Shown here: one piece after another, positions 7,084 through 54,257 of the stretch
How positions within the stretch are numbered: the first letter of the stretch is position 1
Layout: each line of letters begins with the position of its first letter
Origin: an uncultured Clostridia bacterium
GTDB taxonomy: Bacteria; Bacillota; Clostridia; TANB77; CAG-508
Assembly (NCBI GenBank): GCA_934149275.1
Contig: CAKPEG010000004.1
Span: 1,806 to 65,805, forward strand
Length of the DNA stretch: 64,000 nucleotides
Direction: 5' to 3'
Translations under genes and position numbers: made by a program
Notes under the pieces: generated by a model
What the model was told of the DNA's origin: nothing
The model's database searches: none
The model's input: the letters and a program-made list of their open reading frames with translations, nothing else

Positions 7084-7204
7084 GCTTTAGTGATAATCTT
7101 TCAGCTAAATTATTACCTTTAAGAAATTTTTTTGAACTTCATATTGTAATATATTGAAATTTAATCTAAACATTAATTTCCAATATTATAATTAGTGCAA
7201 ATAA

Positions 7205-8101
7205 TCAGATTTTATTAGCATTTACTAATCTTTTTATATCATCAGGCAAATTAGAATGAATAAGCATTTTCTCTTTATTAATTGGGTGAACAAATGACAC
7301 TTCATAAGCATGCAATGCTTGTCTAGAAATCAAAGGACTTTGCAAGCCATACAAAGAATCACCAACAATAGGATGACCAATATATTTAGAATGAACTCTT
7401 AATTGATGTGTACGTCCAGTTTCTAATGTATATTCTACCAAAGTCATATTATTAAATCTTTCTAAAACTTTAAAATGACTAATAGCTAAATCTCCATCCT
7501 CACGAATTTCACGTTCAATAATGCTATCATTTTTTCTAGCAATTGGAGCAGAAATTGTACCATAAGCTTCGTCAAGAATACCTGAAAGAACAGCAAGATA
7601 TTTTTTCTTAAAAACATTTTGTTTCATTTGTTTTACTAAACATTCCTGAATATACTCATTTTTAGCAAAAATAACAATTCCAGAAGTGTCTGTATCCAAA
7701 CGGTTTACAGGTCTAATTTTCTTGTACAAATCTATCTTATCAAAGTGATATTTAACCGCATTTGAAAGTGAATCTTCATAATGTAAAATTGAAGGATGTA
7801 CAGGTAAGTTTGAAGGTTTATCAACAATTAATAAAAAATCATCTTCATATAATATGTTTAATTTAATATTAGAATTAGGCACTATATTTGAAGAATCTTC
7901 TTTAGAATTTTCAATTATAGTTAAAATATCATTAACTTGAATTTTATAATTTATAAATACAGGCACGTCATTTATATAAATTGAATTTGAACTTTTTAAT
8001 TTCAATATAAATCTATCAGACATATTAAATTTATTTTTCAAAATCTGTTTAATTGATTCATCAGAATTTGTAACAACATATGTTAATTTCATAAGCACCA
8101 C
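7205..8101 (-). CDS. RluA-family 23S rRNA pseudouridine synthase (RluD-like)
   Basis: S4-like N-terminus and catalytic motif NRLDTDTSGIVIFAK, plus GRTHQLRVH. Start is ambiguous: GTG at 8101 or ATG at 8092. Confidence 0.85.
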   Translation of the reverse strand: MVLMKLTYVVTNSDESIKQILKNKFNMSDRFILKLKSSNSIYINDVPVFINYKIQVNDILTIIENSKEDSSNIVPNSNIKLNILYEDDFLLIVDKPSNLPVHPSILHYEDSLSNAVKYHFDKIDLYKKIRPVNRLDTDTSGIVIFAKNEYIQECLVKQMKQNVFKKKYLAVLSGILDEAYGTISAPIARKNDSIIEREIREDGDLAISHFKVLERFNNMTLVEYTLETGRTHQLRVHSKYIGHPIVGDSLYGLQSPLISRQALHAYEVSFVHPINKEKMLIHSNLPDDIKRLVNANKI

Positions 8102-8138
8102 ACATTTCCTAAATAATAAGTATTATCATTTTATTATA

Positions 8139-8167
8139 TTGACTTTGAGAAGTCAATTTTATATAAT
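8139..8167 (+). promoter_or_regulatory. sigma-A type promoter upstream of pta
   Basis: TTGACT, 17 nt spacer, TATAAT. Confidence 0.5.
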
Positions 8168-8204
8168 CTAGACAAACCGAACTTATAAATTTAAGGAGGA
8201 TAAT

Positions 8205-9203
8205 ATGAATTTCATAGAAGAAATGAAAAAGAAGGCAAGAACCGATATAAAGACAATTGTACTTCCAGAAGCGGAAGACAAAAGAGTTCTTGAAGCAGCA
8301 AGCAAAGTTGAAAAAGAGGCATTTGCTAAAATAATATTAATAGGAAATATTGAAAAAACAAAAGAATTAGCAAAAGAAAATAATATAGACATTACAAACA
8401 TTGAAATTATTGATCCAGAAAAATCAGAAAAATATGCTGAATATGTACAAGCTTTTTATGAATTAAGAAAAGCAAAAGGAATTACAGAAGAAGATGCAAA
8501 AAAAATAATTAAAAATCCGGTATACTTTGGAATGATGATGGTAAAAAGAGAAGATGCTGACGGACTTGTGTCAGGAGCAGCTCATTCAACATCAGATACT
8601 TTAAGACCAGCACTTCAAATTCTAAAAACAGCACCAGGAACAAAACTTGTTTCAGCGTTTTTCTTAATGAACGTTCCAAATTGCGAATATGGTGAAAATG
8701 GAATTTTTGTATTTGCAGATAGCGGATTAAATGAAAATCCAGATAGTGATAAGTTAGCAGAAATTGCAGCATCATCTGCAAAAAGTTTTGAACAATTAGT
8801 TGGGAAAGAAGCAAAAGTAGGAATGCTTTCATATTCAACATATGGAAGTGCAAAATCCGAATTAACAGAAAAAGTAATCGAAGCTACAAAGTTACTTAAA
8901 GAAAGATATCCCAACATTAAATCTGATGGAGAATTGCAATTAGATGCAGCAATAATTCCTGAAATTGCAAAAAGCAAAGCACCAGAAAGTGAAGTGGCAG
9001 GACAATGTAATACATTAGTATTTCCCAATTTAGATGCTGGAAATATAGGATACAAATTAGTACAACGTTTAGCAAAAGCAGAAGCTTATGGACCTTTATG
9101 TCAAGGAATTGCAAAACCAGTAAACGATTTATCTCGTGGTTGCTCAAGTGATGATATAGTTGGAGTAGTTGCAATAACTGCAGTACAAGGACAAACAAAA
9201 TAA
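8205..9203 (+). CDS. pta: phosphate acetyltransferase
   Basis: 332 aa. Typical Pta sequence (IVLPEAEDKRVLEAA, GLVSGAAHSTSDTLRPALQI, NDLSRGCS). Confidence 0.92.
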   Translation: MNFIEEMKKKARTDIKTIVLPEAEDKRVLEAASKVEKEAFAKIILIGNIEKTKELAKENNIDITNIEIIDPEKSEKYAEYVQAFYELRKAKGITEEDAKKIIKNPVYFGMMMVKREDADGLVSGAAHSTSDTLRPALQILKTAPGTKLVSAFFLMNVPNCEYGENGIFVFADSGLNENPDSDKLAEIAASSAKSFEQLVGKEAKVGMLSYSTYGSAKSELTEKVIEATKLLKERYPNIKSDGELQLDAAIIPEIAKSKAPESEVAGQCNTLVFPNLDAGNIGYKLVQRLAKAEAYGPLCQGIAKPVNDLSRGCSSDDIVGVVAITAVQGQTK

Positions 9204-9257: not shown

Positions 9258-10460
9258 ATGAAAATATTAGTAGTAAACTGTGGAAGCTCATCATTAAAAT
9301 ATCAATTAATAGATATGGAAAATGAAAAACTTTTAGCAAAAGGAAATTTTGAAAGAATAGGTGAAAAAGAATCTTTTGTTACACATAAAGTAAACGGAGA
9401 AAAATATGTAGTAAAAGAACCTGTAAAAGACCATGAAGAAGCTTTGAAAATAGTATTACAACAATTAGTACACAAAGATTATGGTGTAATAAAAGATTTA
9501 TCAGAAATAAATGCAGTAGGACACAGATTAGTACATGGTGGAGAAATATTTAACCAATCAGTTTTAATAACAGAAGATGTTATTAAGAAATATGAAAGTT
9601 GTTCAAGCTTAGCACCATTGCACAATCCAGCAACAATATTAGGAATCAGAGCTTGTCAAAAAGAAATGCCAGGAGTTCCAATGTGTGGAGTTTTTGATAC
9701 AGCCTTCCATCAAACAATGCCGAAAGAAAATTACTTATATCCAATTCCATATGAATACTATGAAAAATATGGAATAAGAAAATATGGATTCCATGGAACA
9801 TCACATCAATTTGTTTCAAAAAGAGCTGCAGAAATCATAGACAAAAAAGATGGAGATTTAAAAATAGTTACATGTCACTTAGGACAAGGTGCATCAATTT
9901 GTGCAATAAAAAACGGAGAATCACAAGACACATCAATGGGATTATCACCATTAGGTGGAATAGCGATGGTAACAAGATCTGGAGACTTAGATCCATCAGT
10001 AGTTACAGAAATAATGGAAAGAGAAAACTTATCAGCAAAAGAAGTTAACACAATATTAAATAAAAAATCAGGATTATATGGAATAACAGGATTAGATCCA
10101 GATTTTAGAGAAATAGAGTTAGCATCTTATAAAGATGACCAACCAAAAGCACAAGTTGCAATCGAACTATTCACACAAACAATAGCACAATTCATAGCAA
10201 AATATGCAGTAACATTAAGAGGAATAGATGCAATAATCTTCACAGGGGGAATTGGAGAAAACCAAATTAATATAAGAAAGAAAATCTGTGAAGACTTAGA
10301 GTGGATGGGAGTTAAACTTGATTTAGAAAAGAACAACGTAAGAAGTGTAGAAACAAAAATATCAAGCGAAGATTCAAAAGTTGAAGTTTATATTATCCCA
10401 ACAGACGAAGAAATGGTAATAGCAAGAGATACAAAGAGAATTGTAGAAAATAATAAATAA
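9258..10460 (+). CDS. ackA: acetate kinase, paralog 1
   Basis: Motifs NCGSSSLKYQL, GHRLVHGG, YGFHGTSH, TRSGDLDP, PTDEE. Confidence 0.92.
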   Translation: MKILVVNCGSSSLKYQLIDMENEKLLAKGNFERIGEKESFVTHKVNGEKYVVKEPVKDHEEALKIVLQQLVHKDYGVIKDLSEINAVGHRLVHGGEIFNQSVLITEDVIKKYESCSSLAPLHNPATILGIRACQKEMPGVPMCGVFDTAFHQTMPKENYLYPIPYEYYEKYGIRKYGFHGTSHQFVSKRAAEIIDKKDGDLKIVTCHLGQGASICAIKNGESQDTSMGLSPLGGIAMVTRSGDLDPSVVTEIMERENLSAKEVNTILNKKSGLYGITGLDPDFREIELASYKDDQPKAQVAIELFTQTIAQFIAKYAVTLRGIDAIIFTGGIGENQINIRKKICEDLEWMGVKLDLEKNNVRSVETKISSEDSKVEVYIIPTDEEMVIARDTKRIVENNK

Positions 10461-10502: not shown

Positions 10503-10738
10503 GCCTCAAAAGGTTGATTTTTAGCCTAAAACCTTGATATAATAAAAATACGTCTTTATAATTTTACATTATAAAAATAAATCGTATTCGTACATTGATA
10601 TCGCGAATGAAATTTAATTATAATTTTAGCAGGACTAAATATAATATAAATTCTAAGTGCTAATCAAGTATAGCTAAGTAGCATACTTGCCTAATCGGCA
10701 TGCTACCTAAAAAAGAAAATATTAAGGGGGAAGCTAAT

Positions 10739-11923
10739 ATGAAAGTTTTAGTTTTAAACTGTGGAAGTTCATCTTTGAAATGTCAATTGATCGATATGGA
10801 GAAAAACGAAAGAATTATGAAAGGACACTATGACAGAATAGGAGGTGCAAGATCTTCACTACGATTTAATGTAAGAGGAGAAAAAACAGTAATTGAACAT
10901 CCTGCAAGAGATTTTGAAGAAGCGATAGGAGAAATCTTAAACTTATTAGTAAGTGATGAATACAAAGTTATAAAAAGCTTTGATGAAATAGGAGCAGTAG
11001 GACACAGAATAGTACACGGAGGAGAAAGATTTAAAGAATCAGTAGTAATAAATGATGATGTAATAGATGCTATAAAAGAGTGCATAACATTAGCACCATT
11101 ACATAACCCAGCAGGTTTGGCAGGAATATATGCATGTCAGAAACTATTACCAAACGTACCAATGGTAGCAGTATTCGACACATCATTCCATCAAACAATA
11201 CCAGAAAAAGCATTTATATATCAATTGCCATATAAATATTATGAAGACTATAAAATAAGAAAATATGGATTCCACGGAATTTCACACAGATATGTTGCAA
11301 ACAGAATATCAGAAATTCTTGGAAGAAAAGATTTAAAAATAATAAATTGCCATCTTGGACAAGGTGCATCATTATGCGCAATTAAAGATGGAAAATCAAT
11401 AGACACAACAATGGGACTAACGCCACTAGCAGGCGTTCCAATGGGAACAAGATGTGGAGACGTTGACCCATCAATCATACCAACAGTAATGAAATTATAT
11501 GATATTCAACCAGACGAAATGTTAAGAATAATGAACAAAGAATCAGGAGCTTGGGGAGTATCAGGAGTTTCAACAGACTTTAGAGATATAGAAAGAACAG
11601 CAGCAGACGGAGATGAAAGATCAATTTTAGCACTAGAAAGTAGAGCATACATAATTGCACAATATATTGCAAAATTTATTGTAACTCTAAACGGGGTTGA
11701 TGTAATAACATTTGCAGGTGGAATTGGAGAAAATGGATTCGAAGAAAGAGAAAGAATTTGTGGATACTTAGAATGCTTCGGAATAAAATTAGATAAAGAA
11801 AGAAATCTAACAAGAGGAGAAGAATATAAAATATCAAGCGATGATTCAAAAGTTGATATTTACATAGTACCTACAAATGAAGAAATTGTAATAGCAGAAG
11901 ATGCATACAATTTAACAAAATAA
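10739..11923 (+). CDS. ackA: acetate kinase, paralog 2
   Basis: Motifs NCGSSSLKCQL, GHRIVHGG, YGFHGISH, TRCGDVDP, PTNEE. Start at the MKVLVLN ATG, preceded by an AAGGGGG RBS. Confidence 0.9.
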   Translation: MKVLVLNCGSSSLKCQLIDMEKNERIMKGHYDRIGGARSSLRFNVRGEKTVIEHPARDFEEAIGEILNLLVSDEYKVIKSFDEIGAVGHRIVHGGERFKESVVINDDVIDAIKECITLAPLHNPAGLAGIYACQKLLPNVPMVAVFDTSFHQTIPEKAFIYQLPYKYYEDYKIRKYGFHGISHRYVANRISEILGRKDLKIINCHLGQGASLCAIKDGKSIDTTMGLTPLAGVPMGTRCGDVDPSIIPTVMKLYDIQPDEMLRIMNKESGAWGVSGVSTDFRDIERTAADGDERSILALESRAYIIAQYIAKFIVTLNGVDVITFAGGIGENGFEERERICGYLECFGIKLDKERNLTRGEEYKISSDDSKVDIYIVPTNEEIVIAEDAYNLTK

Positions 11924-12072: not shown

Positions 12073-13266
12073 ATGAAAATTTTAGTATTAAATTGCGGAA
12101 GCTCTTCTTTAAAATTCCAATTGATAAACATGGAAAACAACGAAAGATTAGCTAAAGGAAATTTTGAGAGAATAGGTGGAATGAAAACCACATTAAAATT
12201 AAACGTAGGAGGCAAGAAAGAAGAATTAGTTCACATTGCCAGAGACTACGATGAAGCAATAAGTTTTGTATTAGAAGTTTTATTAAAACCAGAATATAAC
12301 ATAATAAAATCATTAGACGAAATAACAGCAGTAGGACACAGAATAGTACACGGAGGAGAAATGTTCAGCAAATCCGTACTAATAAATGATGACGTAATAA
12401 AAGAAATTGAAAAATGCATAGACTTAGCGCCATTACACAATCCAGCAGGAGTAGCAGGAATCAAAGCTGCCAAAAATGCATTACCAAACGTACCAATGGT
12501 AGCAGTATTTGACACAGCATTCCATCAAACAATGCCAGCAAAAGCATATATATATCAAATACCTTACAGATATTACACAAGCTACAAAATAAGAAAATAC
12601 GGATTCCATGGAGCAAGCCATAAATATGTAGCTGAAAGAGTTTCACAAATATATGGAAGAACAGAAGACTTAAAAATAATAAACTGTCACCTAGGACAAG
12701 GTGCATCAATATGTGCAATTAAAGATGGAAAATCAGTAGACACATCAATGGGATTAACACCACTAGCAGGAATACCAATGGCAACAAGATGTGGCGATAT
12801 AGATCCAGCAATAATTCCTTATGTAATGAAAAAAGATAATTTACAACCTGAAGATATAGAAGATATATTAAATAAACAATCAGGAGCATGGGGAGTATCA
12901 GGAGTTTCATCAGATTACAGAGATATAGAAGACGGATATAATATGAAAGATCCAAGATCAATATTAGCACTTGAAAGCCAAGCATACAAAATAGCACAGT
13001 ACATCGGGCAATACATTATCTCACTTGGAGGCTTAGACGTTCTAACATTTGCAGGAGGCGTTGGAGAAAACGGAATAGAAACAAGAGAACGAGTATGTAA
13101 ATACCTAGAACCATTTGGAATTAAGATAGACACAGAATTAAACAACATTAAAGGAAAAGAAAGAAAAATAAGCACAGAAGACTCAAAAGTAGATATCTAC
13201 ATAATACCAACAAATGAAGAATTAATGATTGCAAAAGAAACAGAAGAACTAGTTAAAAATTCATAG
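12073..13266 (+). CDS. ackA: acetate kinase, paralog 3
   Basis: Motifs NCGSSSLKFQL, GHRIVHGG, YGFHGASH, TRCGDIDP, PTNEE. Confidence 0.9.
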   Translation: MKILVLNCGSSSLKFQLINMENNERLAKGNFERIGGMKTTLKLNVGGKKEELVHIARDYDEAISFVLEVLLKPEYNIIKSLDEITAVGHRIVHGGEMFSKSVLINDDVIKEIEKCIDLAPLHNPAGVAGIKAAKNALPNVPMVAVFDTAFHQTMPAKAYIYQIPYRYYTSYKIRKYGFHGASHKYVAERVSQIYGRTEDLKIINCHLGQGASICAIKDGKSVDTSMGLTPLAGIPMATRCGDIDPAIIPYVMKKDNLQPEDIEDILNKQSGAWGVSGVSSDYRDIEDGYNMKDPRSILALESQAYKIAQYIGQYIISLGGLDVLTFAGGVGENGIETRERVCKYLEPFGIKIDTELNNIKGKERKISTEDSKVDIYIIPTNEELMIAKETEELVKNS

Positions 13267-13267
13267 T

Positions 13268-13392
13268 TGTCACGGGACGTCCTTTTTGACACAAACTTCA
13301 AACTCAGTCACAGTTTGAAAGTGTCATGGGAACGTCTTTCTCGACCCGAACGTCCAAATCAGCCACAGTCTGAACGTGCCCATGACACGCCA
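13268..13392 (+). repeat. G+C-rich tandem structured repeats (two ~55-nt units plus an inverted partial unit)
   Basis: Unit 1 (13268-13321) and unit 2 (13322-13376) align at roughly three quarters identity. GTGTCATGGGAACG (13321-13334) is complementary to CGTGCCCATGACAC (13375-13388). Confidence 0.7.
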
Positions 13393-13394
13393 TA

Positions 13395-13423
13395 TTGCTA
13401 GATTAAAAGAATCGTGGTATAAT
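13395..13423 (+). promoter_or_regulatory. sigma-A type promoter for the MazF-fusion gene
   Basis: TTGCTA, 17 nt spacer, TATAAT, with a TG extension (TGGTATAAT). Confidence 0.5.
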
Positions 13424-13543
13424 ACCAACATGTTTCATATAATTTCATAGTTATATTTTGCTATGAACCGAAAATGTCAGAAAAGGAGGAGGTATTACAA
13501 GTATTAATAACGGTGTTAATTTTCTCAAAAAGGAGGAGTTCAA

Positions 13544-14779
13544 ATGTTTCAAAAAGAAACATTGTCATCAAATGCTTCAGAAAAGAATAAAACGTGTATA
13601 TCATCACGGACACAAAAATATAATTTGAAATATCCGAGAGTTAAACGTGGAGAATTATATATTTGTGATTTTGGAGAACCTTATGGAAGTGAGCAAGGCT
13701 ATAAAAGGTTTGCTTTAATAGTGCAAAATAATAGAGGAAATCGAGTATCACCTACTACAATAGTTGTAGCGTGTACCACTAAAAAGAAAACCAATTTACC
13801 AGTTCACTATCAGTTCAATCTTTCCCCAAGCATAATGAAAGACTACAACCAAAAACGAATAGGAGAAGAAGTCGATGGAAATACCATATTAGCAGAGCAA
13901 ATAAAGACAGTAGACAAAAAAAGATTACGTAAATTTCTTGGAACAATGACAGATGAATTTATGGATGAAGTACAGAAAGTTATAGATATATCGCTAGATT
14001 TGAAAAGAGATACAGTAAAGTCAGTACAGGATTTAAGTATCATACAGATTCAGCTACTCGCAAAAGCTAATATAGAAAAACTTTTAGAAATTTCTCGGAC
14101 TATAGAGCCAGACGGGATTAAAATAAAGCGGATAATTGAATTATTTGGCTTTGATTTAGAATCAGAGGGGGCGCAATATTTAGTTAAAGCAATTTGCTTA
14201 GCTACCAAAGCAGACTATTCTGATCTAGAAAATTTATGTGAAGAAATTTCTAAAGAGAAGCACACTTTATCCCAAGAGAAAATGAAAGCAATAATTGTAA
14301 CTACAATAAAAGAAAAATTCAATTTTGAAACTTCTGTAGCAATTGAGTTCATTAGATTGATAAGTATACTTTTAGTTAAAGAACCAATTCCAGAGATTAA
14401 GGAAATTGAGTCACTGGAAAATAGCAAAGGAAAAATCGAAAATCTTTTGTGGAAATACTTAAAAAAAGATTTAGAAAAAATAGATTATTCTATGACGGTT
14501 GAGGAGAACATAGACTACTTCTTAGATAGTATTGGTATGTCTACAGATGAAATAATAATGCAATCATTTGTTATTGCTTGTAATACAAAAAGAATAACCT
14601 ATGCGAAGATTATCAATCAGCTTAAAGAAATGTATCCTGAAAAAATGAGTACAGAACTTAGAAAAACTTTGAGAGATAATTTTAAAAAATGGTTAGAAAA
14701 GAATCCAGAGTTAGCGACGCAGTGCAGACAAATTTCAATTATGAATTTACTTAAACTCTTTGCAAAAATGTTTGCATAA
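13544..14779 (+). CDS. MazF/PemK-fold endoribonuclease toxin domain fused to a ~260-aa helical C-terminal region of unknown function
   Basis: Residues ~30-160 match the MazF/EndoA pattern (RGELYICDFGEPYGSEQGYKRFALIVQNNRGNRVSPTTIVVACTT ... ILAEQIKTVDKKRL ... DEFMDEVQKVIDISLDL). A strong AAGGAGGAG RBS is present. The C-terminal part has two helical repeats. Confidence 0.7.
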   Translation: MFQKETLSSNASEKNKTCISSRTQKYNLKYPRVKRGELYICDFGEPYGSEQGYKRFALIVQNNRGNRVSPTTIVVACTTKKKTNLPVHYQFNLSPSIMKDYNQKRIGEEVDGNTILAEQIKTVDKKRLRKFLGTMTDEFMDEVQKVIDISLDLKRDTVKSVQDLSIIQIQLLAKANIEKLLEISRTIEPDGIKIKRIIELFGFDLESEGAQYLVKAICLATKADYSDLENLCEEISKEKHTLSQEKMKAIIVTTIKEKFNFETSVAIEFIRLISILLVKEPIPEIKEIESLENSKGKIENLLWKYLKKDLEKIDYSMTVEENIDYFLDSIGMSTDEIIMQSFVIACNTKRITYAKIINQLKEMYPEKMSTELRKTLRDNFKKWLEKNPELATQCRQISIMNLLKLFAKMFA

Positions 14780-14789
14780 AATCGCTAAA

Positions 14790-14822
14790 AACAGGTGGGA
14801 GATATTTCTCCCACCTGTTTTT
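14790..14822 (+). terminator. intrinsic terminator
   Basis: Stem AACAGGTGGGAGA / TCTCCCACCTGTT followed by TTTT. Confidence 0.85.
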
Positions 14823-14851
14823 ATATATTATTAATGATTTTTAGACATAAA

Positions 14852-14973
14852 CGAATATTATATTTGATTTTTGAGTGACGCGCAGTTTGAAAGTTTTTCC
14901 CTAACCTTCTAAACGAAGTTTAGTGGGTGGGAAAATATTTTAGCAAGGAACGAAAAAATAAATATAATATTCG
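14852..14973 (+). repeat. Family-A palindromic MITE-like repeat, copy A2
   Basis: TIRs CGAATATTATATTTGATTTTT / AAAAAATAAATATAATATTCG with the conserved core GAGTGACGCGCAGTTTGAAAG...CTAAACGAAGTTTAG... Confidence 0.9.
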
Positions 14974-22845: not shown

Positions 22846-22969
22846 GAAAATATTATATTTGGTTTTTGAGTGACGCGCAGTTTGAAAGTTTTTCCCTAAC
22901 CTTCTAAACGAAGTTTAGTAGGTGGGAAAATATTTTAGCAAGGAACGAAAAAATAAATATAATATTTTC
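22846..22969 (+). repeat. Family-A palindromic MITE-like repeat, copy A3
   Basis: TIRs GAAAATATTATATTTGGTTTTT / AAAAAATAAATATAATATTTTC. Outer flanks are TTAATTATAGAAAAA and TCAACAAT. Confidence 0.9.
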
Positions 22970-49039: not shown

Positions 49040-49164
49040 GAAAATATTATATTTGATTTTTGAGTGACGCATAGTTTGAAAGTTTTTCCTCAGGTATTCT
49101 AAACGAAGTTTAGTAGGTGGGAAAATATTTTAGCAAGGAACAAAAAAATAAATATAATATTTTC
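49040..49164 (+). repeat. Family-A palindromic MITE-like repeat, copy A4
   Basis: Same TIRs and core as the other A copies, with a diverged 5' arm of the central hairpin (CCTCAGGTATT). Outer flanks are TTAATTATAGAA and TTAATAAT. Confidence 0.9.
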
Positions 49165-54139: not shown

Positions 54140-54257
54140 GAATATTATATTTATTTTTTAGTGACGCGCAGTTTGAGAGTTTTTACCTAACCTTCTAAAC
54201 GAAGTTTTGTGGGTGGTAAAATCTCTTAGCAAGAAGCAAAAAATAAATATAATATTC
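54140..54257 (+). repeat. Family-A palindromic MITE-like repeat, copy A5
   Basis: Diverged copy. The outermost pair of the central hairpin has changed from C-G to A-T on both arms (compensatory). Confidence 0.85.

Follow-up and report, generated by a model that had tools for sequence, protein, structure and literature searches.

A predicted MazF endoribonuclease fused to a divergent Spo0A_C-type module and to part of a former operon partner in uncultured gut Clostridia

INTRODUCTION

The MazF proteins of Bacillus subtilis (MazF/EndoA, also called NdoA) and Staphylococcus aureus (PF02452; structures 4MDX, 1NE8, and 4MZP) are single-domain proteins of about 115 amino acids (aa), encoded downstream of mazE. 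Here, we describe a gene of an uncultured Clostridia bacterium that appears to place the same domain in a different setting. The gene lies on the forward strand at positions 13544 to 14779 of a 64,000-nucleotide (nt) stretch of DNA (GenBank assembly GCA_934149275.1, contig CAKPEG010000004.1, positions 1,806 to 65,805; hereafter, the window). Its predicted product resembles the B. subtilis and S. aureus proteins in fold (template modeling [TM] score of 0.81-0.86), in sequence (about 40% identity over aa 33-153), in the Arg/Thr pair, and in the motifs GSEQG and EQIxTVDK, whereas it is 411 aa long, carries two extra domains, and is encoded by a monocistronic gene with no mazE.

The first of the extra domains, module 1, is predicted to be a remote homolog of the Spo0A effector domain (PF08769; structures 1LQ1 and 1FC3) and of the stand-alone and tandem Spo0A_C proteins of Clostridia and phages, with helices A-D, including the helix-turn-helix (HTH), in common. 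Unlike Spo0A, the window protein has no receiver domain, scores below the Pfam threshold, keeps the DNA-contact residues in part, and joins this module to a predicted RNase. A chromosomal mazF without a cognate mazE, coupled in function to a transcription factor that binds DNA and apparently part of host physiology, has been described in Myxococcus xanthus (MazF-mx and MrpC; PMC4803016). There, however, MrpC is a separate, unlinked protein whose antitoxin role is disputed, whereas the window protein carries its DNA-binding-type domain within the same chain and had, in its ancestor, a MazF paralog as partner. CapRel SJ46 (PMC9712102) and EzeT likewise join a toxin domain to a C-terminal region of putative regulatory function in one chain without a separate antitoxin gene, but their toxin folds are different (RelA/SpoT-like or zeta) and cis-neutralization has been demonstrated for them, whereas the window protein is known from sequence and a structural model and has no defense context.

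Pairs of MazF-fold proteins are also on record. Makarova et al. (2009; PMC2701414) tabulated 43 MazF genes adjoining a second MazF/CcdB-family gene, and these pairs are similar to the two-gene operon from which the window gene descends (genes A and B below), in that a MazF lies beside a second MazF-fold protein. A and B differ from those pairs in being multidomain (N-module, MazF fold, and helical C-module) and in the invariant His that B carries at the position of the catalytic Arg; no such architecture is found in that survey (PMC2701414). Fused or orphan forms are not mentioned in a survey of the MazF family (PMC3879964), and our literature search found no paper combining PemK with Spo0A_C. 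The new features of the window gene appear to be the architecture (MazF, a Spo0A_C-type domain, and a captured piece of B), a natural deletion series, and a leader of its own.

RESULTS

The window gene encodes a bona fide MazF domain

The open reading frame (ORF) that the original prediction placed at 13544..14779 (+) encodes 411 aa, begins with ATG, and is preceded at 7 nt by a strong Shine-Dalgarno (SD) sequence, AAAGGAGGAG. ORF calling, Pfam, alignment to PDB sequences, and an AlphaFold model together divide this coding sequence (CDS) into a MazF domain, a Spo0A_C-like module, and a partner-derived helical module. Specifically, the AlphaFold2 model, built from a 50-sequence alignment (mean predicted local distance difference test [pLDDT] score of 77; predicted TM score [pTM] of 0.36), contains a MazF barrel at aa 31-155 and two sets of helices at aa 166-277 and 295-410, with disordered linkers at aa 156-162 and 280-295.

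We found that aa 31-155 (13634..14008, +) constitute a bona fide MazF/PemK family domain, in agreement with the MazF/EndoA pattern and the catalytic residues first noticed by eye. The Pfam profile PemK_toxin (PF02452) matches aa 34-150 over profile positions 1-108 of 109, scoring 86.2 bits where the cutoff is 23.1 (E = 2e-24). In a phmmer search of all PDB sequences, the best matches were B. subtilis EndoA/YdcE (4mdx/1ne8) and S. aureus MazF (E from 1.5e-18 to 2e-16, with about 40% identity over aa 33-153), and the alignment places Arg55 (GYKRF) on B. subtilis Arg25 and Thr78 (the first T of VACTT) on B. subtilis Thr48. The predicted barrel, with a pLDDT of about 85, superimposes in Foldseek on 4MZP, 1NE8, and 4MDX with TM scores of 0.81-0.86 (E of about 3e-9). 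Across the family, the catalytic Arg is present in 138 of 152 members and Thr or Ser at the second position in 148 of 152, and the RNA-binding motifs GSEQG and EQI(K/R)TVDK are conserved. By homology, the domain would be expected to dimerize and to cut RNA sequence-specifically.

Several phage “PemK-like” proteins of 220-266 aa (BFVD entries A0A8S5SHR3, Q332J9, A0A8S5QRG6, and A0A8S5RGV8) align with the window model over 237-272 columns, past the MazF core, which indicates that MazF proteins with C-terminal extensions exist in phages too.

Module 1 resembles a divergent Spo0A_C-type domain

The original prediction tentatively likened the spacing of the helical region to the C-terminal HTH of Spo0A. 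For module 1 (aa 163-280; 14030..14383, +), whose homologous core spans approximately aa 187-256 with a terminal helix to aa 277, this likeness held up. An exhaustive HMMER search with the module 1 profile over 1.84e9 representative proteins returned 98 proteins, nearly all of them with the architecture of gene A. In the tail of this search were six proteins (E from 3e-7 to 7e-4) that Pfam assigns strongly to PF08769, four with three or four tandem copies and two with a single domain. When module 1 was compared by hhalign with a Spo0A_C profile built from the domains of these six proteins together with 1LQ1 and 1FC3, the match had a probability of 97% and an E value of 9e-11 over 69 columns, covering helices A-D and the HTH. 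The link to Spo0A_C therefore came from divergent Spo0A_C proteins that the exhaustive reverse search supplied.

Other comparisons were weaker or mixed in outcome. The module 1 profile had no match among PDB sequences, and an hhalign comparison of module 1 with 1LQ1 as a single sequence reached E = 0.06. The Pfam Spo0A_C profile produced hits, all below its threshold, in 7 of 15 family members (best E = 0.0039), including module 1 of the window at 14.1 bits (cutoff of 25; E = 0.048). In Foldseek searches of PDB with the models of both the window protein and B, the top 50 entries were filled by MazF structures and the helical modules were not readable. Against viral structures, the full window model matched two phage “Spo0A C terminal” proteins (probability of 1.0; TM scores of 0.66 and 0.51; E = 0.06 and 0.24), in an output that does not state which module was matched. 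We conclude from the sequence profiles that module 1 is probably a divergent Spo0A_C-type domain lying below the Pfam threshold. The region between helices D and F is shorter than in Spo0A, so that the σA-activating helix E region of Spo0A seems to be missing. In addition, since the 411-aa protein contains no receiver domain, its N-terminus being MazF, it is not a Spo0A ortholog.

Four of the divergent proteins (P0305, P0306, P0309, and P0312; handles beginning with P and L denote related proteins and loci) carry three or four tandem Spo0A_C domains in a chain of 340-470 aa. We know of no description of such an architecture.

Module 2 derives from the partner protein B

The original prediction suggested looking for homologous fusions and their neighborhoods, and doing so revealed, in relatives, an A-B operon in which the C-terminal domain of B is the source of module 2 (aa 296-411; 14429..14776, +; model pLDDT of 85-91). 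In the canonical locus L001, gene B (7152-8591) lies directly downstream of A and encodes 479 aa. By BLASTP, module 2 is 44% identical to the last 117 residues of this protein (aa 363-479; E = 2e-29), and the match was repeated in eight further loci. Each of the 11 canonical loci that we examined has the A-B pair, with the two genes overlapping or a few nt apart. Canonical A, of about 385 aa, consists of a conserved N-module of about 60 aa, a linker, MazF, a second linker, and a helical module of about 115 aa that corresponds in the alignment to aa 163-280 of the window protein. The junction linker of the window protein (aa 281-295; 14384..14428, +), which marks the A/B fusion point, coincides with low model confidence (pLDDT below 50 at aa 280-295) and follows the position at which canonical A ends (approximately aa 280 of the alignment).

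Since module 2 matches the C-terminal domain of the neighboring B, it is not an internal duplication, and the gene is an old fusion relic of a two-gene A-B operon. The window protein is A without its N-module, fused in frame past the natural C-terminus of A to the C-module of B; the N-module of A was lost, as were the N-module, the helical hairpin, and the MazF-like core of B.

A search with module 2 alone, which was limited by the word prefilter, gave two matches; repeated with an alignment of gene B, it uncovered a family of more than 176 unnamed proteins (P0109-P0228 among them). In the AlphaFold model of B, an N-module of the order beta-alpha-beta-beta-alpha-beta precedes two long helices, after which come a MazF-fold domain, a long disordered linker of 65 residues, and a helical C-module with pLDDT above 90. 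The two-helix segment before the barrel is conserved. That the middle domain of B has a MazF fold is indicated by Pfam PemK (E = 0.005), by Foldseek (TM score of about 0.75), by BLAST to the MazF of A (E = 2e-6), and by precomputed PF02452 annotations on several members. This domain has two invariant His residues (GxH...GEINGGHV), one of them in place of the catalytic Arg of A, and retains the Thr. B could be an RNase whose chemistry has changed, or a pseudo-toxin.

The original prediction had also described two related helical segments. The helix order is shared between modules 1 and 2 in the model, and in a MAFFT alignment the C-module of B is co-linear with module 1, but the sequence relation is weak (hhalign E = 0.016 local and 0.0035 global). 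It is plausible, not proven, that the two modules are distant paralogs. Similarly, the Spo0A likeness noticed at the outset is only suggestive for module 2, whose hhalign comparison with the Spo0A_C profile gave E = 0.0023 and a probability of 12.5%. For the N-modules of A and B, hhalign gave E = 0.19, which does not demonstrate paralogy, and the N-module profile had no relative in PDB.

The fused gene is maintained by purifying selection

The family is small and chromosomal. The 411-aa protein has 99 relatives in a collection of 5.8 billion proteins, all unnamed and annotated with PF02452 only, and about 98 clusters among the 1.84 billion representatives; module 1 occurs in only about 12 of 185,579 species-representative genomes. 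The carriers are uncultured gut Clostridia known from metagenome-assembled genomes (MAGs), with the window 95% identical to uncultured Clostridium sp. UMGS1994, which explains how the family escaped annotation beyond “PemK”.

Within this family, the fused form keeps its frame of 411-415 aa in orthologs at 65-98% identity from many independent assemblies and is therefore not a recent accident. Nei-Gojobori ratios of nonsynonymous to synonymous divergence (dN/dS), computed for pairs up to a dS of about 1.5, were 0.08-0.16 for MazF, 0.2-0.39 for module 1, and 0.10-0.19 for module 2, with an overall value of 0.17-0.25 and nearly neutral evolution in the first 30 residues. All three folded domains are thus under purifying selection.

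Natural variants surround the fused form. P0020, a 292-aa ortholog at the same locus in another species, consists of MazF and module 1 only and is strongly constrained (MazF dN/dS of 0.08). Among the relatives, B occurs without its C-module (L010, 6893-7708; L030, 6821-7627) and without its MazF-like core (L009, 3011-3796), and P0291 combines the N-module with module 1 without MazF. At least four different housekeeping neighborhoods harbor the canonical A-B pairs; close relatives share each of them, and mobile-element genes occur in none.

The locus has neither a linked antitoxin nor a defense context

The original prediction reported no upstream mazE-like ORF and no protein antitoxin gene, and the locus bears this out. 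Between ackA and the gene, the forward strand contains ORFs of 44 aa (13267-13401) and 38 aa (13474-13590), neither of which is mazE-like or has a Pfam match. We considered the second as a leader-encoded peptide antitoxin and rejected it: only 10 codons are conserved, the frame is shifted in L006, and the ATG is missing in L009, L012, and L013, so that this ORF is not a peptide gene. The locus is also no canonical mazEF operon with an adjacent, co-transcribed small antitoxin, the gene being monocistronic between its promoter and terminator. In relatives, the gene linked to A is the 440-500-aa protein B rather than a MazE, ribbon-helix-helix (RHH), or AbrB protein.

A defense effector had been among the readings of the original prediction, and the searches lend it no support. 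At E ≤ 0.01, neither the window protein nor canonical A or B matched any model in PADLOC-DB 2.0. None of the 2.9 million viral contigs of IMG/VR contains module 1, phage and plasmid records match the MazF half only, and PHROGs matches were confined to the MazF part. Moreover, the gene sits at a stable housekeeping locus.

A conserved promoter and 5' leader precede the gene

As the original prediction proposed, the gene has its own promoter and terminator. A consensus scan identified a σA-type promoter at 13395..13423 (+), with a -35 element TTGCTA (13395-13400), a 17-nt spacer, and an extended -10 element TGgTATAAT (13415-13423), for 10 of 12 matches plus the TG. A sequence scan placed a bidirectional intrinsic terminator at 14786..14823 (both strands), whose perfect 17-bp stem includes seven GC pairs. 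The promoter and leader are nearly invariant in the orthologs L084, L004, L089, and L087, although the synonymous divergence of the CDS is saturated, and TGnTATAAT lies upstream of every canonical gene A.

The 5' leader (13424..13543, +), approximately 113-120 nt long, is homologous to the leaders of all canonical A genes, as judged from leader alignments and the raw upstream sequences (window 13395-13543, L001 5860-6000, L005 95-239, L006-L013, and L030). An extended -10 comes first, then a block TTTACATAA(T/C)TTTGT and a hairpin, followed by AAAUGUC, an AAAGGAG box resembling an SD, and GAUAUUACAAGUA; a spacer rich in A leads to the true SD. The start codons that follow are GTG or TTG in canonical gene A (L001 6001, L005 240, L006 5695, L008 5656, and others) and ATG in the fused window clade.

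The first block is a candidate operator. A motif search limited the TTTACATAA motif to gene A promoter regions in the 961 kb searched, and in L001 and L005 it is a perfect palindrome, TTTACA-N6-TGTAAA. Its distance to the -10 element is not constant, and a further, inverted copy is present in L008, as would be expected for a protein operator. The window-clade counterpart would be the TTTCATATAATTTCATAG block at 13433..13450 (+).

The hairpin of the window leader (13444..13467, +) pairs UUCAUAGU with GCUAUGAA around a loop of 8. RNAalifold on the MAFFT leader alignment returned zero pairs because the variable stems were misaligned, and it was replaced by folding each lineage separately against dinucleotide shuffles. 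A hairpin was found at the same place in 11 of 11 leaders, with unrelated stem sequences and z scores between -2.1 and -5.5 (combined by Fisher's method over eight lineages, p = 8e-11). Since unrelated stems all exceed the stability of their shuffles, an RNA structure, i.e., a covarying hairpin, is indicated. Downstream, a single-stranded block, AAAUGUC-AGAAAAGGAGGAGG-UAUUACAAGUA (13471..13503, +), is kept in fused and canonical loci alike and contains, some 45 nt before the true SD, the SD-like box. The STAB-SD (stabilizing Shine-Dalgarno) elements of Gram-positive bacteria are comparable mRNA stability elements, and this block may act as a STAB-SD-like mRNA stabilizer or as a regulatory site. 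Rfam has no family in or near the locus, and the leader could be a cis-regulatory element that is new and confined to this gene family.

Genomic neighborhood

The synteny pta-ackA(x3)-X-rqcH-TPR-dpaA (TPR, tetratricopeptide repeat) is common to orthologs at 63-98% identity, including the 292-aa form without module 2, and the gene (X) always lies between the third tandem acetate-kinase gene and rqcH/NFACT. The window has pta at 8205-9203 and, after it, three acetate-kinase-family paralogs in tandem (9258-10460, 10700-11923, and 12073-13266). Orthologous contigs keep the order of pta and the triple kinases, with an insertion between kinases 2 and 3 in L087 that consists of a sigma-70-region-2 gene and a gene for 289 aa.

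The claim that the gene is richer in G+C than its neighbors was not borne out. Its G+C content is 0.29-0.32, compared to 0.30-0.35 for the upstream ackA, and only the downstream gene is lower (about 0.25). A foreign origin argued from G+C content was therefore rejected, as the gene does not exceed both of its neighbors.

The repeats said to bracket the gene are real. Downstream lies a 118-nt element at 14854..14971, a neighbor and not part of the gene, which resembles a miniature inverted-repeat transposable element (MITE) with inverted ends of about 22 nt. Repeat comparison revealed five copies in the window at 91-98% identity (14854-14971, 2266-2382 on the reverse strand, 22849-22966, 49043-49161, and 54140-54257). 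Upstream, the structured region 13268-13392 is present (fold z of -2.15), but it is lineage-specific and not found in the ortholog L089. A 12-mer of the MITE-like repeat, CAGTTTGAAAGT, recurs in this hairpin-rich region.

We also counted pentamers in control genes of the window (ackA, rqcH, and others) and of the neighbors in L001, L010, and L012. In these genes, pentamers containing GATC are strongly under-represented relative to synonymous shuffles (GGATC, 0 observed and 7.4 expected; GATCA, 4 observed and 12.9 expected), which hints at GATC-directed restriction pressure in these organisms.

DISCUSSION

We propose, as a tentative reading that we hold at somewhat below an even chance, that the gene encodes a domesticated MazF endoribonuclease that has become fixed in the chromosome, regulates itself, and brings its own means of binding DNA. 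The protein would dimerize via its MazF domain, as all known MazF proteins do, and would recognize a short motif in single-stranded RNA and cleave there. In the dimer, the Spo0A_C-like modules would bind the promoter-proximal motif and autoregulate transcription, and the fused modules would in this way take over a job that usually falls to the antitoxin's DNA-binding domain. The helical modules may also restrain or steer the RNase, with the acidic module 1 adjoining the basic RNA groove; in the ancestor, the paralogous B would have provided part of this restraint. The 5' hairpin and the upstream SD-like box would set mRNA stability and translation. The net outcome would be a tightly self-limited RNase for the control of host RNA, rather than for addiction or defense. 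Of the three readings offered by the original prediction (a self-neutralizing single-chain toxin-antitoxin, a toxin tethered to a DNA-binding or sensor module, and a defense-type effector), the tethered toxin fits best.

Several observations weigh against this proposal. With a pTM of 0.36, the model contains no confident inter-domain packing, which leaves restraint in cis unsupported. Module 1 does not reach the PF08769 gathering score (14.1 against 25 bits), its consensus had no PF08769 match in Pfam, and the module consensuses gave only noise there (CUE and DUF5891). Module 1 is also acidic overall (pI of 5.2), which is unusual for a DNA-binding domain, and in the very clade of the window gene the candidate operator takes a degenerate form (TTTCATATAATTTCATAG). 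At a z of -1.4, against -1.2 in controls, the genes of the system show no avoidance of UACAU, which is the motif of the closest characterized MazFs; this measure is indirect and uninformative on RNase activity. Finally, the antitoxin search covered the 64-kb window, and an unlinked antitoxin could lie elsewhere.

The alternatives differ mainly in what keeps the RNase in check. In one, which we consider rather doubtful, the protein is a cis-neutralized single-chain toxin-antitoxin or sensor, in which the helical modules cover the RNA groove of MazF until a trigger such as a phage protein, stress, or proteolysis of a linker releases it. Fused toxin-antitoxin proteins have a precedent (PMC9712102), and phage PemK-like proteins of 220-266 aa align past the MazF core. 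The absence of a detected antitoxin gene, the intact and constrained catalytic residues, and the disordered linkers at aa 156-162 and 280-295 would all suit such a device. Module 2 would suit it too, coming from a partner protein and being the most constrained non-catalytic part (dN/dS of 0.10-0.19). The toxin-binding segments of MazE are acidic, and module 1 is an acidic domain beside the basic MazF domain. However, the 292-aa P0020 lacks module 2 and is still under strong purifying selection, with a MazF dN/dS of 0.08; module 2 is therefore dispensable for tolerating the toxin and is not an indispensable antitoxin. The lack of confident inter-domain contacts in the model (pTM of 0.36) argues in the same direction, as do the missing PADLOC match, the locus outside any defense island or mobile context, and the absence of module 1 from 2.9 million viral contigs.

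It is in our view unlikely that the protein is an ordinary MazF toxin which an unlinked antitoxin or a host factor neutralizes in trans, in an arrangement of the MazF-mx/MrpC type, and whose C-terminal modules serve only DNA binding or partner recruitment. A solitary mazF in host regulation is documented for Myxococcus (PMC4803016), the visible portion of the genome is 64 kb, and the promoter is strong and looks constitutive. Nevertheless, the ancestral linked partner is B and not a MazE, RHH, or AbrB protein, no data point to a specific trans factor, and the species-representative MAG with the fused gene, whose completeness is unknown, returned no second family locus. To the same degree improbable is a MazF that is no longer toxic, the protein being a transcription factor or nucleoid-associated regulator that uses its barrel for dimerization or for RNA or ligand binding. 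Compatible with this are the persistence of the gene at a housekeeping locus in several species with no antitoxin, an HTH module combined with a promoter-specific conserved DNA motif, and the lack of UACAU avoidance in its own mRNA. This reading is difficult to reconcile with the conserved catalytic Arg/Thr, GSEQG, and EQI(K/R)TVDK in a domain 40% identical to the active B. subtilis MazF, with the lowest dN/dS of the protein falling in that domain, and with a catalytic pair for which a pure dimerization scaffold has no need. The idea that the gene is functionless, either an assembly artefact or what is left of a decaying A-B operon, is effectively refuted: the gene did originate by large deletions of both genes, but its frame of 411-415 aa is intact down to 65% identity in many independent assemblies, its overall dN/dS is 0.17-0.25, and its promoter, SD, and terminator are conserved.

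Besides the self-regulating RNase that we favor, a broader and more speculative idea, on balance doubtful, concerns the ancestral operon. The A-B pair could be a new toxin-control module in which, in place of a small antitoxin, the multidomain paralog B, whose MazF-like core has an Arg-to-His change, restrains a Spo0A_C-bearing MazF. The window gene would then be a natural single-chain derivative in which the C-terminal domain of B and module 1 gate the RNase in cis, while the dimer autoregulates through the operator and leader.

MazF toxins are textbook two-gene toxin-antitoxin modules, and the locus described here points to a conserved lineage in which the RNase seems to have taken in the DNA-binding function. 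The family-specific leader, with its operator-like motif, covarying hairpin, and SD-like box, is a testable regulatory element. The series from A plus B, to the fused gene, to MazF and HTH only suggests that every recognizable neutralizing partner was shed stepwise, with strong purifying selection throughout. If the RNase is active, this natural series would address how a toxin is tamed without an antitoxin, and it would also address the role of Spo0A_C-type domains outside Spo0A, which are abundant yet unstudied in Clostridia and phages.

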